Below, piece after piece: positions 4,511 to 11,365 of a stretch of DNA of 12,646 nt. The stretch lies in IMG/VR virus record IMGVR_UViG_2531839662_000020; one strand, given 5' to 3'. Within the stretch, counting starts at the first letter, position 1; every line of letters begins with the position of its first letter. Under the pieces are notes generated by a model. That model ran no database searches. It was not told the origin of the DNA and was given only the letters and a program-made list of their open reading frames with translations. This DNA is from a virus (Duplodnaviria; Heunggongvirae; Uroviricota; Caudoviricetes). The translations under genes were made by a program, and so were the position numbers.

Positions 4511-5718
4511 TCTTTTTCACCTTTAATTTCCACAGTCTGCTTCCATGCCTGGCTGAACTCGTCGCCACCTTCACGCGGCGGCATTCCCTCACGCTCACGG
4601 GCTTCGTTCGGATTCATGATCCCGTTCTTAATCCCTTTCTCATACGTGGCGTAACGTTCAGTAGGTGTGGCGCGCAGTAAATCGGCTGAATCAAACTCAA
4701 CCAGATAACGGGTACCAGGTACGGGAGAAGCCACCAGCAAAGCGGCCTTGATTTGCTGTTCGAAGTTCGCCAGCCACGGACGCATTGTCATAGTCAGAAA
4801 CGCGCGGCTTGCCTCACTGAAATTGCTGTAGGTGCTGTTGCTGTATTCCTGCAGAAAAATCGGCGACACGTTGAACATCCGGGCGATGTCTTCAATGGAG
4901 AAGCGACGGGAGGCCAGCCATTCCGCATCCTGGTTACTCATCCCCAGTTGCTTGTAATCCATGCCCCCTTCAAGGATTGGCGTTTTTCCGGCATTTTTCG
5001 CCCCCTTGTAGCGTTCCAGTGCGTCTAATGCCTGTTTACCTTTCACGCCGTCCAGCCATTCGCCTGACGTGATAATCCCTGCCGCCATCATGCCATCTTT
5101 CATAATGCTGGCTCCGTGACGCTGTTGAGCAAGGCCAAGCCCCAGCGCCTCACGGCAAATCGTGATGGGGGAGCGTCCCAGAAAGCCATCATCCGAGGCA
5201 TAGCGGAGATGCAGAACTTCTTCCTGTAAATACGTGCGCACCGTTCCTGTACAGGGTTCGGTGATGGTATAGCGGTATTTGTGTGCGCCTGTGCGTTCCG
5301 GTACAACACACCCCGGCGCATAAGGATGAAGTGATTTTGGCTGACCGTCCCGCCCCCATTCAATAACCGCATAGGCGTTACCGTTCAGCAGGCAGTGACG
5401 CATCATTGTGCGTTTAAACTGGTAAGGTGTCTGGCACGAATTAGGCTGCTCATTCAGCAGAATATCTACCGGATGACTGTCCAGCCATTCCCGCGCCTCC
5501 CTGCCCTTGTCATTACGTACCAGATACAGATAACACGGCATCGTGGCCACCGCCTCAGCGATGACGGAAACCGCGTTCATCACTGCGGGCAATGATTCAG
5601 CCGTCCCGGCAGAAACATATTCTCCGGATCCGGTATTCGGTACGCCGGACAGCACCAGAAAATCATCAATGGACAGGTTACGTTGCTCGCTTTTTTTACG
5701 ACTAAAAGGCCACCACAT
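4504..5718 (-). CDS. Portal protein, HK97 family-like
   Basis: About 404 aa when started at the ATG at 5718 (MWWPFSRKK...), 1 nt after the protease stop. Size and position between protease and connector fit a portal. The upstream 73 codons of the track ORF overlap the protease gene and are rejected. Confidence 0.8.
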   Translation of the reverse strand: MWWPFSRKKSEQRNLSIDDFLVLSGVPNTGSGEYVSAGTAESLPAVMNAVSVIAEAVATMPCYLYLVRNDKGREAREWLDSHPVDILLNEQPNSCQTPYQFKRTMMRHCLLNGNAYAVIEWGRDGQPKSLHPYAPGCVVPERTGAHKYRYTITEPCTGTVRTYLQEEVLHLRYASDDGFLGRSPITICREALGLGLAQQRHGASIMKDGMMAAGIITSGEWLDGVKGKQALDALERYKGAKNAGKTPILEGGMDYKQLGMSNQDAEWLASRRFSIEDIARMFNVSPIFLQEYSNSTYSNFSEASRAFLTMTMRPWLANFEQQIKAALLVASPVPGTRYLVEFDSADLLRATPTERYATYEKGIKNGIMNPNEAREREGMPPREGGDEFSQAWKQTVEIKGEKDE

Positions 5719-5719
5719 A

Positions 5720-6280
5720 TCACAACCCCGCCAGCTCTGCCCAGCGATGACGATTATTTCCTGCCGGGCGTAATTCAGGGTGCTGTGCAAACAACGAACG
5801 GTGGGCAATCTCCACGCCAGATTCGGGATAAGCAGGCATCGACGTGATCGTGATTTCCCTGAGTTCTGCAGCGGTAACAGTACGCAGATACGGTTTTTGC
5901 GCGATATTCCACTCTTCGCATAATGCGCGAAAGCCAAAGCTCATCCCTGTAATGTCGCCACGCTCCACCAGCGTAAGCACATCTTTTCCAAGCTGGGTAT
6001 CAGGCGGTGTCAGTTCAAAACGTAGCCCGGTGTTGTCCTCAGTCAGTACCAGAGTGCCGGATTTGGTGCGCCCCAGCAGTTGGGTATAGTCATGCTCATA
6101 CAGGCAGCGCACATCATTACCCGCCGCCAGATAGTCAGCAAAAGCCCCCGGCGTGAACTGTTCGCGGAATTCGTCCCAGATAATTTCTGAAAGGCTGTTC
6201 CAGCGAACGGCATACCCCACCAGCTTTTTATTGCTGGCGGTCAGTTCAGATGTGCGGATTTCAAAATCGGTGTTTTTCAT
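5720..6280 (-). CDS. Prohead protease, HK97 family (S78-like)
   Basis: 186 aa with GGAG RBS 8 nt upstream of ATG. Sits between capsid and portal. Family recognised by eye from overall sequence and size. Confidence 0.8.
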   Translation of the reverse strand: MKNTDFEIRTSELTASNKKLVGYAVRWNSLSEIIWDEFREQFTPGAFADYLAAGNDVRCLYEHDYTQLLGRTKSGTLVLTEDNTGLRFELTPPDTQLGKDVLTLVERGDITGMSFGFRALCEEWNIAQKPYLRTVTAAELREITITSMPAYPESGVEIAHRSLFAQHPELRPAGNNRHRWAELAGL

Positions 6281-6334: not shown

Positions 6335-7504
6335 CTAGCCAGCTTTCATTTCCAGAATTTTGATGGCGTTTGAATCCACCACACCACCGCCCAGATATTT
6401 ATCCGTGTGGACCTTGTAGAATCCGGGTTCAGTAATGTTGTCCGGTCGGGTGCGAATCCCTGTTACATGATCAACGATGAAATAACCACGACTGAAATCG
6501 CCAACCGCTAGCGGTGCTTTTCCTGCGCCGATGTCCGGCATGGACTCCAGGCAGAAAACAGGACGACCAAGCAACATATCCGGCGCACCTTCTTTAAGGC
6601 TGTCGCGCCAGATATAATCGCCATTCTCATTTTTCAGCTTCTGTAGTGTCCCTGCCGTGCCCGAGTTCATCACCCAGACGGCATTTTTGCGGTATTTCGC
6701 TTTCAGCTTGTAGAGAATGTCGATCAGTTCGTCCGCTGTAATGGCGGTTCCACTTGCCGCTACCACTTTTTCAATGGTGCCAAAAGCGCGGGTTTTGTCA
6801 CTGGTCGCCGCACGGGTGTAAGCCATGAAGCCTTTCGGCTTGCCGTTACCGTCGCCATTAACAAAATCATCCTCTTCGGTGCTGGCGAACGTGTCGGCAA
6901 TTTCGGAGGATAACCAGCCCAAAATATCCACCTCTGAAAAATCCAGGATTTCCTGCGTGGTTTTCGGGTAGGCGTAGATCTGATTCAGCTTGATGGTTAC
7001 ACGTTCAATTTTCGGGGTGTTGGTTTCACTACGTGCGCTGCCTTCTGTGCCTCGTCCTACAGTTGCGCCGCCAGTGGAAACCAGTTTCTGAAACTCATTT
7101 GATTTTGCGGTCTTCACGGTCGCGATCACGCGCATAACACTGTCATCCTGTAGCTGGCGCATGACTTCGCGATCAAGCTCAGGAATTACGGTATATCCGC
7201 CATCCCTGCCGCTGTCAGTGCTGGTGGACAGTGATCGCACATCTCCGGTTACGATGTAGTTACGCAATTCATCAGATGATAATTTCTGGATGCCCGTTCC
7301 TGGCTTGCTGCGTTCTTCATCAGCCACAGACTCGAGGCGGTAAATTTCTGTGTCGAGGGAATCGGCTTTTGCACGCAGTTCATCAAACTGTTTGCCCTCG
7401 TCATCGTTCAGGCTGCGGTTTTCACTGTCGGCTTTTTCCAGCAGGGATCGCATCTGGTTTTTCAGGGCGGTTTTTTGCTGGCGGAGTTCGATTAATTTCT
7501 TCAT
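6335..7504 (-). CDS. Major capsid protein, HK97 fold, with N-terminal delta/scaffold domain
   Basis: 389 aa. N-terminal about 100 aa is charged and coiled-coil-like (delta domain), followed by an HK97-like MCP body. First gene after the candidate late promoter. Confidence 0.85.
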   Translation of the reverse strand: MKKLIELRQQKTALKNQMRSLLEKADSENRSLNDDEGKQFDELRAKADSLDTEIYRLESVADEERSKPGTGIQKLSSDELRNYIVTGDVRSLSTSTDSGRDGGYTVIPELDREVMRQLQDDSVMRVIATVKTAKSNEFQKLVSTGGATVGRGTEGSARSETNTPKIERVTIKLNQIYAYPKTTQEILDFSEVDILGWLSSEIADTFASTEEDDFVNGDGNGKPKGFMAYTRAATSDKTRAFGTIEKVVAASGTAITADELIDILYKLKAKYRKNAVWVMNSGTAGTLQKLKNENGDYIWRDSLKEGAPDMLLGRPVFCLESMPDIGAGKAPLAVGDFSRGYFIVDHVTGIRTRPDNITEPGFYKVHTDKYLGGGVVDSNAIKILEMKAG

Positions 7505-7653
7505 GAAGGTTTTCTCGTATTGGTTAAGATTCAGGACGTGAAACCAACACGGAGGGAGCGCCGCCCGACACTCTCGGCATCTCGCAGATCAACCCGGCAT
7601 CGCGCAGGGGGTCAGGCGGCATTGTGGCGGCTCACGTCTGAGTGCCACACGCC

Positions 7654-7726
7654 AACATATACATAAAAATCAGTATGTAAACATCAGCCAGAATCACCGA
7701 ACAACCTGGAACAACCACGAACAAAT
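7654..7726 (-). promoter_or_regulatory. Candidate activator-dependent late promoter for the capsid operon
   Basis: On the minus strand: -35 TTTACA (7676-7681), 16-bp spacer, -10 TATGTT (7654-7659). Upstream are three direct repeats GGTTGTTC / GGTTGTTC / ATTTGTTC with 10-bp phasing (plus-strand GAACAACC at 7699-7706 and 7709-7716, GAACAAAT at 7719-7726). Confidence 0.35.
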
Positions 7727-7741
7727 AATTTACAAAACCTG

Positions 7742-7770
7742 AAAAAAAGACCTGGAGAAAATCCAGGCCT
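7742..7770 (-). terminator. Rho-independent terminator ending the early/replication operon
   Basis: On the minus-strand transcript: stem 7762-7770 pairs with 7748-7756 (9 bp, one mismatch), loop 7757-7761, then a U7 run (plus-strand A7 at 7742-7748). Lies 9 nt after the stop of the 82-aa gene. Confidence 0.65.
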
Positions 7771-7778
7771 TTATCGCT

Positions 7779-8027
7779 TTATTGTTTCACTGGATCCCGC
7801 ATTCTGCGTCTTATTTTCCACAGATATTCGATCATCGCTTCCACCTGCTCACGATTGGTTGCGAAAATTTCCCCGGTCAGTGAGCTGCGCAGAAAATCAT
7901 GATGATCCACAACAAACAACGCATCGGAAGAAAGCAGACGGCGATATTTTTTTGCTGTCGTGGTTTCCAGATCATCAAAACCATGAAACTTTTTATGTTG
8001 CTGGACTTCTTCAAATGTCACTGGCAT
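7779..8027 (-). CDS. Hypothetical protein, 82 aa, translationally coupled to the ProQ/FinO gene
   Basis: ATG start at 8027 overlaps the upstream gene's 3' end by 10 nt. No family recognised. Followed by the terminator. Confidence 0.5.
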   Translation of the reverse strand: MPVTFEEVQQHKKFHGFDDLETTTAKKYRRLLSSDALFVVDHHDFLRSSLTGEIFATNREQVEAMIEYLWKIRRRMRDPVKQ

Positions 8028-8560
8028 GTATCCCCCTTTGCTGCCCGGCGCTGGCGCTTGTGCTTCTCATTCAGCGCCATCAGCCGCGTTTCTGCCTCCT
8101 GCTGTTCCTGTGGTGTCACTTCCCCACATGGCTGGCCTTTCAGGTCGTATCGTACCCCACCAGCAACCAGGGCGCGGTAATAGCGCGGAGACTGCGCATA
8201 AGATGCCAGCGTCGCACGTAATGCCCCCGGCCCGAATGCCAGCCCCCTGACGGCGAGATCCTGCATCAGGTCGTCGAATATCCCCACCTTAAGCGGCTTC
8301 GGTGCTTCCCTGTTGAATAAGTCAGGCCACATCTCAGTGAGGCGGTTAACGCGCCTGCGGTTTTTGCGCTGGCGTTTGGTCATATGCCGCCACGGTGTCA
8401 CCCCTGTGGGCTGCCCTTTGCGGCTCTGCTGTGCGTTCTGATTGCCGGGTATCACTTTATGCGCCGATGTGGTTTTATCCCGCTCTTGCGCCGCCTGCGT
8501 CGTTTTCTGCGGCGTGCCGTAAATGCCTTTCGGTTTTCGGTTAATGGTCAGCTTTGTCAT
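8018..8560 (-). CDS. ProQ/FinO-domain RNA-binding protein with basic N-terminal extension
   Basis: C-terminal two-thirds (WPDLFNREAPKPLKVGIFDDL...LRATLASYAQSPRYYRALVAGGVRYDLKGQPCGEVTPQEQQEA) matches the ProQ/FinO N-terminal domain pattern recalled from E. coli ProQ. N-terminal about 70 aa is Lys/Arg/Gln-rich. AGGGGAAGG RBS. Confidence 0.75.
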   Translation of the reverse strand: MTKLTINRKPKGIYGTPQKTTQAAQERDKTTSAHKVIPGNQNAQQSRKGQPTGVTPWRHMTKRQRKNRRRVNRLTEMWPDLFNREAPKPLKVGIFDDLMQDLAVRGLAFGPGALRATLASYAQSPRYYRALVAGGVRYDLKGQPCGEVTPQEQQEAETRLMALNEKHKRQRRAAKGDTCQ

Positions 8561-8596: not shown

Positions 8597-9022
8597 TTAA
8601 AACGGTATGTTATCCCCGTACAGGTCATCGTGCTGGCCTGTCTGTTGTTTTGCCCTGTTCAGTGCGTCAGTGGCCTGCCCCTGTTGGCCTTTTTTGCCGC
8701 CCGGTCGCGCCGTTCTCGCACTGATTACGCTGTCTGCGATGACCTGCCAGCCCTGCCGCGTTTCGCCGTTCTGCCCTGTCCACTGGCTTACCTGCATGTT
8801 ACCCGCCACGTTCACCAGTTCGCCTTTGCGGTGTTTTGCCAGTGCGTCGGCCTGTCTGCCAAACGCCAGGACGGATAACCACATCGTCGCCGTTCCGTCA
8901 TCTGCCTGGCTGCATGGCAGGGGAACCGCCATACTCGCCATCGCCATTTGTGTTCCCTTGCTGGTGGTCTTTAACTGCGGGTCAGCCACCAGCCGCCCGT
9001 AAGCCGCTATCTGTGCTGTCAT
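8597..9022 (-). CDS. ssb: Single-stranded DNA-binding protein (SSB)
   Basis: 141 aa. OB-fold-like N-terminal region (GRLVADPQLK...), Gly/Gln-rich linker, and acidic C-terminal tail DDLYGDNIPF resembling the SSB DDDIPF tip. Confidence 0.8.
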   Translation of the reverse strand: MTAQIAAYGRLVADPQLKTTSKGTQMAMASMAVPLPCSQADDGTATMWLSVLAFGRQADALAKHRKGELVNVAGNMQVSQWTGQNGETRQGWQVIADSVISARTARPGGKKGQQGQATDALNRAKQQTGQHDDLYGDNIPF

Positions 9023-9085
9023 GCTGTCTGCTCTCCGGTTTTAACGTTGATGGTTACGCTTGTTTACACCCTTACGGTGAAATTC

Positions 9086-9219
9086 TGCGGGTTATAATCG
9101 CACTTTTGCGGGTTATAACTGCCGTTTTGCGGGTTACGTGCGGGTTATTGATTTCCTTTTTATTCATACAGTTAATGCACTTATATACATGATAACCCGC
9201 ATAACCCGCATAACCCGCA
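9086..9219. repeat. Iteron cluster A: 4 direct TGCGGGTTA(T/C) repeats (spacing 21/21/11 bp), AT-rich spacer, 3 tandem inverted ATAACCCGC
   Basis: Direct copies at 9086-9095, 9107-9116, 9128-9137 and 9139-9148. AT-rich stretch 9149-9191. Inverted tandem copies across 9192-9219. Lies in the 220-bp gap between the primase-helicase stop and ssb start. Confidence 0.75.
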
Positions 9220-9241: not shown

Positions 9242-11365
9242 TTAATCTTCTGCCTCAGGCTGGAACATCAGCACGTAAAAAACATGCTGCTTCCCCCCAA
9301 TTTTGCCGAGCGCCTTTTTCTTGTAACGGCGATCGTTACCCGCTTCCAGCATTCCGGCAGCACTCAACGCGCGGGCAAAGTGAGACGGATTAAATCCCTG
9401 TGCTATCTCACCCTCAAATACATGCGGGAACGTGTAAAAACGGAACTCGTCATCTTCGTTTCTGATACTCCCCTTTCTGTATCCGGCAAGTTCTTTAATC
9501 GGTAAATCACGCTCGTCGGTATTGGGCCACGGAAGGTATCTGCTGAATCCGAACGACGCTAAAAAAGCTTCTGCCTGTTCAACCATCTGTTTAAATTCCC
9601 TGTTACCCGTGCCGAACTCCTTCACCCAGGCATTAAAATTATGCTGTATGGCATCGCGGCATTCCTGCTCATCCCAGCCAGTAACATGACCTGAAAGCAC
9701 AAGCGCGGCCTCCAGTATGGCAAATCGCTCCCCCACACGGTGAACCTGTTCGCCGTAGCTCTCCGGTATCAGGTTGCGCCACCGCTCACGGCATGTCCTT
9801 ACCGTGTCCTTTGCCTCCTGCTGGTGTTCTGCCAGCCATTTAACCCACTCACGACCCGCCGCCCCGTGATTTTCTGTCCAGGCATCCTTTAACGCGTCTG
9901 CGTGCGCCTTTCCGGTGCTGTATTCGTGAAATTGCGTGGCTTTTTCCATCGGAACGTTAAGCAGGCGGACAAGCTGCCCCGCTTTGACTTTTATCCCCTC
10001 CGTTTTGAGGAATGTCTCAACGTCCATTTCTCCGGTGCTGATTGCCACCGTGCGCCAGTGTTTGATCTCCCTGTTGCCGCCGTCCTTCGCCCCCTGTAAT
10101 TTCCCCGAACCGTTAAACAGCGTATAGGCTGACGTGGACACCTCCCGCGCGTTTCCGGCCTGGCCTATTTCATCCAGGGGTAAAAGCCCGTCATTGTGTG
10201 CCTCTGCTTCGTTGGCGATACCTAACGCTGTGCCGTACCAGGTCAGCCGCTGCGCGTCCGGCTCTCCCCATAAACTTGATGCGATGTTCTGTGTGGTGGT
10301 TTTCCCTGCCGATGACTGTTCGAAAAGATGTACCCCGAAGCCGTCAGCGCCCACCAGCCCGATTAATGGTGCGGATAACGATACCGCCACACCCAGCATC
10401 ATGGACGGATTACCACCAGCCAGCCGCGCAACGATATCGCGCCAGCCCTCCGCCGTTCCTGCCACGGAATAGCCATTAACAGCAGCCGTTTTTCCGGTAA
10501 ACAGGACTGGCTTTTCGCAATCACCAATGACCGAACCGTCCGGCATGATGTACGCGCCAAAATGCCAGCCCGTTGTTGTGCTTAACTGCCATTCCTCATG
10601 GCTTCCGCTTAACTGCATCCAGTCAGCCAGGATAGCCCTGTATTTACCGTTGGTTGTTACGTTCAGTCCGTGGTCTTTCAGCAACCGCCAGCCGTCACGG
10701 TCGCCAATGCCACCGCACGGAACCGCCATTGTGATGACTTCATGGTTTGCTAATTTTTTCCAGCGCATCACGCGGTAATGCTCTTTACCGATTGTCCCCG
10801 TTCCCAGTAGTTCAAGCGGGGAACATAACCACGTCTCAGGCCGGATAATTTCGCCTGACTGCTTATCCACTTTTGGCGTTACCCAGAAAACACCATCGGC
10901 GCGACTTTCAACGCGGGGCTTTAATTCATCATCGCCCTGGATTTCTGTGATTTTTTTCTTTAAGGGCAACACCAGACTTTCCCCGCGCTCGTATTCGTCT
11001 TTGAGGCGAGGCAACTGGTCGGATAAATCCGCCGGGCTGATGTCAGTTATCCCCGCGTATTCGTATACGGTCTTCACGCCAGCCACAGCCAGCAACGTGA
11101 CGATCTGTGTAAGGCTACGTTCAGTGATGTGCCCTGCGCGGTAAACACGCACACACTGACGGCTATCATCAATAATTTGATAACCGGTAATATCTTTCAG
11201 GTGTTCATCTGACAGAACGACAGGCGGCACATTGTCGGCGGCAATATGCTTACCTGCCCATTCCTGCCACTCTTTCGCATGGCTCCACGCATCACTACCC
11301 GCAAAGATGATAACCTCCGTCATTTTGTCGGCTGGCTGGTGCTTTAAGTTTGGTGCGCGCTTCAT
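9242..11365 (-). CDS. Replicative primase-helicase (toprim-like N-terminus, P-loop NTPase core; DUF927-like)
   Basis: 707 aa. Walker A-like SSAGKTTT in the central region. Overall resemblance to satellite and prophage primase/helicase replication proteins. ATGA overlap with the upstream small gene. Followed by iterons. Confidence 0.8.
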   Translation of the reverse strand: MKRAPNLKHQPADKMTEVIIFAGSDAWSHAKEWQEWAGKHIAADNVPPVVLSDEHLKDITGYQIIDDSRQCVRVYRAGHITERSLTQIVTLLAVAGVKTVYEYAGITDISPADLSDQLPRLKDEYERGESLVLPLKKKITEIQGDDELKPRVESRADGVFWVTPKVDKQSGEIIRPETWLCSPLELLGTGTIGKEHYRVMRWKKLANHEVITMAVPCGGIGDRDGWRLLKDHGLNVTTNGKYRAILADWMQLSGSHEEWQLSTTTGWHFGAYIMPDGSVIGDCEKPVLFTGKTAAVNGYSVAGTAEGWRDIVARLAGGNPSMMLGVAVSLSAPLIGLVGADGFGVHLFEQSSAGKTTTQNIASSLWGEPDAQRLTWYGTALGIANEAEAHNDGLLPLDEIGQAGNAREVSTSAYTLFNGSGKLQGAKDGGNREIKHWRTVAISTGEMDVETFLKTEGIKVKAGQLVRLLNVPMEKATQFHEYSTGKAHADALKDAWTENHGAAGREWVKWLAEHQQEAKDTVRTCRERWRNLIPESYGEQVHRVGERFAILEAALVLSGHVTGWDEQECRDAIQHNFNAWVKEFGTGNREFKQMVEQAEAFLASFGFSRYLPWPNTDERDLPIKELAGYRKGSIRNEDDEFRFYTFPHVFEGEIAQGFNPSHFARALSAAGMLEAGNDRRYKKKALGKIGGKQHVFYVLMFQPEAED

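Follow-up and report, generated by a model that had tools for sequence, protein, structure and literature searches.

Introduction

Capsid-forming PICIs (cf-PICIs) are recently described and widespread phage satellites, whose packaging genes have been dissected while the genes between the replication origin (ori) and the capsid operon have not. The architecture of these elements was described by Alqurainy et al. (10.1101/2022.09.08.507074). Helper-phage induction, with transfer in small capsids made by the satellite, was demonstrated experimentally only for EcCIEDL933 and a few others, and EcCIEDL933 was reported not to interfere with helper phages (10.1101/2022.09.08.507074). The region that precedes the packaging module has been called variable, and immune systems are expected there (10.1101/2025.02.11.637232). 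In other satellites, small proteins encoded downstream of the replication module, namely Ppi of SaPIs and Rpp of an E. coli PICI, bind a helper-phage protein (10.1101/2022.09.08.507074). Neither ProQ nor SSB is mentioned in the cf-PICI papers examined.

The DNA analysed here, referred to as the window, is a stretch of 12,646 nucleotides from an IMG/VR virus record. An open reading frame of 82 codons with an ATG start, designated orf82, occupies positions 7779..8027 of its minus strand and overlaps a gene for a ProQ/FinO-domain protein. A preliminary description took this overlap to imply co-expression of the two genes and possibly a functional partnership of their products. ProQ-family proteins have a preference for binding terminator hairpins and, to our knowledge, no obligate small protein partner has been described for the ProQ/FinO family. 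The type of element was already known, and databases listed the protein both under "hypothetical protein" and in a PHROG; the literature searched contained no mention of the protein or its accessions. What is new here is that the link to ProQ is largely refuted, that the slot held by orf82 and its alternative occupants are defined, and that the family is described as usually acidic, with a predicted orphan fold.

The Window as a Capsid-Forming Satellite

Judged from its gene content, the window is an E. coli cf-PICI. All of its genes lie on the minus strand and follow one another, in the order of transcription, as a DUF4222 protein, a DUF927 primase, an iteron ori, SSB, ProQ, orf82, a terminator, a control region of 230 nt, and the capsid module. 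The satellite packaging module comprises capsid, protease, portal, connector, HNH, TerS, and TerL genes, and the window, like closely related annotated elements, lacks tail and lysis genes. A capsid-to-TerL set of its own, with tail and lysis genes absent, is the mark of a cf-PICI, and elements of the same type are present in loci L001–L004 and L107. This gene set agrees with the published architecture.

The DUF927 primase/helicase (9242..11365, minus strand), recognised by Pfam and PHROG profile matches, is the putative replication initiator. It is followed by the ori at 9083..9219, which consists of four TGCGGGTTA iterons, an AT-rich spacer, and three inverted iterons. SSB (8597..9022, minus strand; Pfam PF00436) comes next, and the first gene of the packaging module encodes an HK97-type major capsid protein (6335..7504, minus strand; Pfam PF05065, E 7.5e-72). 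Both the primase and the iteron ori are thus contained in the window, while an integrase and AlpA/HTH regulators were seen only in related loci, beyond the position of the window's right end.

A second cluster of ori iterons is located at 475–629, beyond TerL, and contains three TGCGGGTTA copies, a spacer, and three inverted copies. It is inverted relative to the main ori, and the two clusters belong to a total of 16 matches, against 2.9 expected. The duplication of the cluster is also found in L001, L004, and L107. As regards integration, in strains 2014C-3075 and PEC240 the whole cf-PICI has inserted into a resident HK97-like prophage, where it splits the gene for the large terminase into two pseudogene halves (4659–5402 and 20469–21497 in L001; 450–1193 and 16273–17301 in L004), and in L020 a cf-PICI directly adjoins a tape-measure gene. 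Prophage genes appear to serve these satellites as attachment sites.

orf82 Is a Genuine Gene with a Predicted Orphan Fold

The product of orf82 is annotated in RefSeq as WP_001145404.1, a "hypothetical protein". The dN/dS ratios of E. coli orthologue pairs range from 0.03 to 0.46 and are mostly about 0.1–0.2; the most diverged set of pairs, with dS of 0.6–0.9, gives about 0.12–0.17. When 1.8 billion cluster representatives were searched exhaustively with HMMER, 49 related clusters emerged, mostly of 75–90 aa and 30–50% identical to orf82. The low dN/dS, the RefSeq annotation, homologues detectable down to 30% identity, and a structural model with a mean pLDDT of 91 together argue against a chance reading frame. 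In other words, orf82 is a genuine small-protein gene under purifying selection. In some orthologues (L003, 9242–9244; L065), including that of E. coli SMS-3-5, ATT replaces the ATG at the start and the rest of the gene is intact; RefSeq still gives these proteins at full length.

The preliminary description had recognised no family. This holds for Pfam, NCBIfam, and PADLOC, in which scans of orf82 and 33 family members returned only sub-threshold noise (TCAD9, DUF7002, Imm15), with no PADLOC model matching orf82 at E 0.1. It does not hold for PHROG: the phrog_1957 HMM matches orf82 with E 1.6e-36 over its full length, residues 1–81 aligning with positions 1–81 of the 82 in the profile. Conserved positions of the family form a motif composed of Y28, then (F)vDHHdfLR, and then sGEixAtnxEQldxlIeyL; Y28, D41-H42-H43, E53, and Q61 make up a conserved cluster.

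Structure prediction and a remote homology search, both suggested at the outset, yielded distant homologues and a confident model, without a match to a known fold. The AlphaFold2 model, built from an alignment of 31 sequences, is compact (pTM 0.74) and has a predicted topology of helices at 5–15 and 25–33, strands at 38–40, 46–48, and 54–56, and a helix at 59–73. Structure searches with this model found no match in PDB or BFVD. A wing-like strand-turn-strand segment of N.BspD6I, found by a profile search of PDB sequences, was considered and rejected, as the domain E value was a weak 0.16 and the structure searches gave no backing. Neither an HTH or wHTH fold or profile nor any other DNA-binding fold was detected in orf82. 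The family is acidic, with a median pI of 5.1 and a median net charge of −5; the copy in the window, at pI 8.1 and with a basic C-terminal helix, is an outlier. We infer that orf82 encodes a small, globular protein with an orphan alpha/beta fold, usually acidic in its family.

Expression Signals and the Junction with the ProQ/FinO Gene

The ProQ/FinO-domain protein of 180 aa is encoded at 8018..8560 on the minus strand (Pfam PF04352, E 9e-25), in an optional cassette between SSB and orf82, and it scores below the cut-offs of the specific FinO and ProQ NCBIfam models. Its domain covers only residues 68–172, and the N-terminal stretch of about 65 residues is a basic low-complexity extension. The overlap with orf82 noted earlier is real: the ProQ stop and the orf82 start share 10 nt, ATGCCAGTGA, at 8018..8027 (minus strand), and the junction is identical in all 19 ProQ-containing IMG/VR loci.

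The second early observation, that orf82 is the last gene before the terminator of the early operon, was likewise confirmed. A putative intrinsic terminator, directly 3′ of the orf82 stop at about 7739..7772 (minus strand), has an 11-bp stem, a 5-nt loop, and a U7 tract, and would end the early/replication operon. Its hairpin has a predicted dG of −19.5 kcal/mol (z −4.0), although a consensus terminator scan did not list it. Hairpins of other sequence occupy the same position in L136 and L107.

It is almost certain that orf82 is co-transcribed with the ProQ/FinO gene in the window, and the two could be translationally coupled there. Nevertheless, orf82 has a Shine–Dalgarno sequence of its own, AAGGGGGAT (8031..8039, minus strand), which lies within the 3′ end of the ProQ gene and places GGGGG 5 nt ahead of the ATG. 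GGGGG or an AGGAGG equivalent is likewise present ahead of orf82 in elements where SSB, PerC, or the ori comes before the gene. Since every version of orf82 examined has its own strong Shine–Dalgarno sequence, coupling to ProQ is not required for expression. Moreover, the SSB-type and ProQ-type junctions share their sequence from GGGGGATACATG onward, which indicates that the overlap arises because the coding sequence of this ProQ allele, in its final codons (GDTCQ*), extends across the orf82 ribosome binding site at a module or recombination joint. Comparison of the junction sequences thus shows the 10-nt overlap as a by-product of one cassette junction. The last five residues of satellite ProQ proteins vary with the downstream cassette, be it orf82 or PerC.

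ProQ as an Interchangeable Neighbour

The overlap, the common operon, the conservation of the junction in all ProQ-containing loci, and the presence at the 3′ end of orf82 of a terminator hairpin, the kind bound by ProQ-family proteins, could all be taken to mean that orf82 is a functional partner of the ProQ/FinO RNA chaperone, co-translated with it and acting jointly on satellite or helper RNAs. Co-occurrence across genomes speaks strongly against this partnership. Among 5426 complete E. coli genomes, 135 carry orf82, and in just 44 of them is ProQ adjacent, adjacency being scored when a query spanning both genes was covered to at least 80%. In the other E. coli genomes inspected (L002, L003, L004), SSB is followed by orf82 at a distance of about 17–20 nt. 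Conversely, about 1200 genomes carry related ProQ genes without orf82, and in classical PICIs (L005, L008) ProQ is followed instead by a PerC-family gene, with a 4-nt overlap.

The same picture emerges from viral contigs. From IMG/VR, 80 loci with the orf82 protein family were recovered, 46 at 94% identity or higher and 34 at 43–51%. ProQ is the upstream gene in 19 of the 46 close loci, PerC in 15, and SSB in 12 (as it is in L002 and L003, which have neither ProQ nor PerC); ProQ adjoins the homologue in none of the 34 distant loci, and hence in 19 of the 80 overall. An HMM made from five PICI ProQ proteins found no ProQ-like ORF anywhere in the 34 distant loci, in eight loci from other genera, or in the metagenomic loci. 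The orf82 orthologues are 94–100% identical irrespective of their upstream neighbour. ProQ is therefore one of several interchangeable upstream neighbours of orf82, the others being PerC and SSB.

These data largely refute the proposed partnership, which is now extremely improbable. The preliminary description had itself named a pair not conserved in related elements as the outcome that would count against it, and this is the outcome observed. Of the co-expression claim, shared transcription stands, and coupled translation may apply to the window.

A Fixed Position between the Origin and the Capsid Operon

While its upstream neighbours change, orf82 keeps its place. In 78 of the 80 IMG/VR loci, a cf-PICI capsid gene follows the orf82 homologue at a distance of 241–2252 nt. 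A genome scan with an alignment of nine family sequences yielded the eight loci from other genera, and the order initiator, ori, homologue, capsid is found in Serratia, Gilliamella, Phytobacter, Leclercia, Enterobacter, and Erwinia genomes. It recurs in metagenomic cf-PICIs, with homologues about 30% identical and initiators of the DUF5906 type or D5_N with Toprim, and in circular "plasmid" records of 16–17 kb from Klebsiella and Arsenophonus. In distant cf-PICIs, iterons lie directly upstream of the homologue. The EcCIEDL933-type element encodes a 74-aa homologue (L107, 10933–11157; phrog_1957, E 7e-42) after SSB and PerC and before the capsid gene. The same placement is thus seen in eight or more genera as well as in the prototype-type element. 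This shows orf82 to be a position-locked, semi-core cf-PICI gene, with the ori and replication genes upstream and the capsid operon downstream.

A related satellite lies by phoQ at 6001–9258 of L194 (CP061267.1), where a 74-aa orf82 homologue again follows SSB and PerC. Its head module differs, comprising a 351-aa major capsid protein, a head decoration protein, a connector, and TerS, so that it may represent a second type of capsid-encoding PICI. The 171-kb record is labelled a plasmid; as it carries phoPQ, it may be a misassembled piece of chromosome.

Because orf82 directly follows the ori iterons or SSB in most elements, a role as a replication accessory factor, acting at the adjacent ori or with SSB, was considered. 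Classical PICIs make this very unlikely. L006 has the same iterons, a primase 89% identical, an SSB 94% identical, and ProQ, yet it carries neither orf82 nor a capsid module, and orf82 is also absent from L008, which shares the iterons, primase, SSB, and ProQ. Furthermore, the family is paired with at least four unrelated types of initiator (DUF927, RepA helicase, D5_N/DUF5906, and a helicase of about 450 aa). That classical PICIs keep the replication genes and ProQ without orf82 indicates that orf82 travels with the capsid-forming lifestyle, and not with the replication module or ProQ.

PerC-family regulators deserve separate mention, being similar in size (90–95 aa) and taking the slot right after ProQ in classical PICIs. 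In some cf-PICIs, PerC is located directly upstream of orf82; as both can share one element, they are not alternatives to each other. The possibility that orf82 is a remote PerC homologue was rejected, with an hhalign probability of 0.1% and no Pfam match.

The Capsid-Operon Control Region

Downstream of the terminator, a predicted capsid-operon control region (7505..7737, minus strand) contains a TTTTGTAAATTATTTGT box (7721–7737), two phased GGTTGTTC repeats 11 nt apart, a sigma-70-like −35/−10 pair (7681–7654), all on the minus strand, and a structured leader of about 145 nt before the capsid gene. The approximately 230 nt upstream of the capsid gene, with an invariant TTTGTAAATTATTTGT box, are strongly conserved in all cf-PICIs examined, in several genera, with or without the orf82 family. 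The leader has a nearly invariant hairpin, GTGGCACTCAGACGTGAGCCGCCAC, and a stem beside the ribosome binding site. In addition, its long stem appears to covary, with GCCGCCTGA/TCGGGCGGC, GGCCGTTTAA/TTAAACGGCC, and TCCACCTGG/CCAGGTGGA as alternative pairs. An Rfam search of the conserved leader gave no match, and the packaging operon may here carry a cis-regulatory RNA not previously described.

The place of orf82 immediately upstream of this promoter region, with its box and phased repeats, its linkage to the capsid rather than the replication module, and the basic C-terminal helix of the window's copy would suit a late activator or antiterminator, produced last from the early operon and turning on the capsid/packaging operon. 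Such a role is nonetheless decidedly unlikely, given that the family is acidic overall and lacks a detectable DNA-binding fold. Near-identical control regions occur with and without the gene, as in L142 (with orf82) and L145 (without) or in L141 (with) and L139 (without), which argues against orf82 as the specific activator of that promoter. Moreover, the variable repeats of the region do not track the type of orf82.

Alternative Occupants of the Slot

A second sample was anchored on the capsid protein and comprised 74 cf-PICI loci with sufficient upstream sequence. An ORF of the orf82 family is present in 53 of them. Among the remaining 21, the same mean position is taken in 18 by an unrelated protein of 111 aa (phrog_7232, pI 4.35; for example L139, 4845–5180), and 3 have a 60-aa ORF (as in L138, 5584–5766). 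In about a quarter of cf-PICIs, therefore, the slot is filled by unrelated small ORFs. No locus carries both orf82 and phrog_7232; the Fisher p of 1.8e-14 is inflated by common ancestry, because 14 of the 18 phrog_7232 loci belong to one primase cluster. Gene-content association over the 74 cf-PICIs returned only the mutually exclusive phrog_7232 and lineage-linked replication genes, and no positively associated packaging gene.

These counts bear on the idea that orf82 is a capsid-assembly or DNA-packaging accessory of the morphogenesis module. It co-occurs almost exclusively with capsid-forming satellites, and classical PICIs that share the replication genes lack it. Transfer of EcCIEDL933 was reported to drop when "hypothetical gene 1792" was mutated (10.1101/2022.09.08.507074), and this gene may or may not be the orf82 homologue. 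Against a packaging function, a terminator, and often inserted accessory genes too, separate orf82 from the packaging operon, and unrelated proteins replace it in a quarter of elements. A tblastn search of 50,697 phage records at E 1e-5 found no homologue, although related HK97-type modules were included. Additionally, capsids of 100% identity and of 69% identity both occur with the same orf82 allele, and a 98% capsid occurs with a 46% homologue, which speaks against a close physical association between the orf82 product and the capsid protein. A packaging role is accordingly considered unlikely.

Distant Relatives and the Question of Cargo

Some distant members of the family are found in clusters that resemble defence islands. 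In L024 (6248–8139), a TIR protein is followed by an 84-aa homologue and then by a protein whose nuclease domain is of the CBASS/Shedu type. In L017 (5580–9182), an AIPR/AbiU-like protein precedes an 86-aa homologue, whose gene overlaps that of a 646-aa protein with no family match. Further distant members are situated at prophage ends beside integrases. IncF/F-type plasmids encode a 72-aa phrog_1957 member (E 1e-15; L195, 5995–6213; L196, 6031–6249) without the N-terminal helix, which heads a cluster for choloylglycine hydrolase, malic enzyme, and anion permease, a context unrelated to satellites.

TIR, nuclease, and AIPR genes beside distant relatives, together with the published view that immune systems are to be expected in a variable region before the packaging module (10.1101/2025.02.11.637232), would be in line with orf82 as pure cargo of a variable hotspot, for instance as an immune-system component, playing no part in the satellite cycle. 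This explanation is rather unlikely. No PADLOC model was matched, one position is kept across genera at 30–50% identity, and the true hotspot genes lie downstream of orf82.

Proposed Role and Comparison with Known Systems

The explanation preferred here, with low confidence and at less than an even chance, is that orf82 encodes a small protein that binds another protein and serves the satellite as an accessory or conflict factor, to which unrelated acidic proteins would be equivalent in other lineages. The protein would be made from the last gene of the early operon, after the ori and any SSB, ProQ, or PerC cassette, and transcription of that operon would stop at the terminator just ahead of the capsid-operon promoter. 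It would then bind another protein, of the helper phage, the host, or the satellite itself, and act in the satellite life cycle as an accessory or conflict factor, probably not through binding of RNA or DNA. In other cf-PICIs, phrog_7232 would do the equivalent job from the same slot.

Several observations fit an accessory or conflict factor, namely the mutual exclusivity with phrog_7232, the acidity of the family, the relatives in defence islands and at prophage ends, the reality and cf-PICI synteny of the gene, and its linkage to the capsid module rather than to the replication module. Other observations weigh against it. The copy in the window is not acidic; the exclusivity is confounded by lineage, given the single primase cluster mentioned above; and positional conservation across genera exceeds what is usual for pure cargo. 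The F-plasmid homologue at the head of a metabolic operon fits no conflict role. Lastly, the lack of helper interference by EcCIEDL933 argues against a strong anti-helper role.

A broader and more specific proposal is that orf82, phrog_7232, and the 60-aa ORF mark a previously unrecognised slot for small acidic proteins of orphan fold, each binding a helper or host protein and thereby setting which helpers or hosts can be used, as would happen if they neutralised a host defence or captured a late function of the helper. In this full form the proposal is unlikely; if true, satellite specificity or anti-defence factors would gain a new class.

As an uncharacterised accessory gene in a known element, orf82 is of modest immediate importance. 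Nevertheless, one small family with a predicted orphan fold holds the place between ori and capsid operon across many Enterobacterales and beyond, while ProQ, PerC, and SSB are swappable. This makes orf82 a defined deletion target for experimenters, and the result keeps a wrong "ProQ co-factor" annotation from spreading.

Compared with catalogued families, orf82, the EcCIEDL933-type 74-aa protein, and the F-plasmid 72-aa protein all match phrog_1957. This family has no assigned function in the catalogue, so membership explains nothing by itself; synteny, charge, and a predicted fold are added here. With ProQ/FinO-family RNA chaperones, orf82 shares adjacency and co-transcription in the window, whereas the co-occurrence is not conserved. 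The resemblance to phrog_7232 lies in the slot between the replication module and the capsid promoter, in acidity, and in exclusivity, whereas the sequences are unrelated (hmmsearch E 0.16 with filters off). The comparison with Ppi and Rpp has limits, since a terminase is encoded by the cf-PICIs themselves and helpers are not blocked by EcCIEDL933, which makes a TerS-directed role of orf82 unlikely. Their published descriptions nevertheless provide the working analogy for the mechanism by which orf82 may act.
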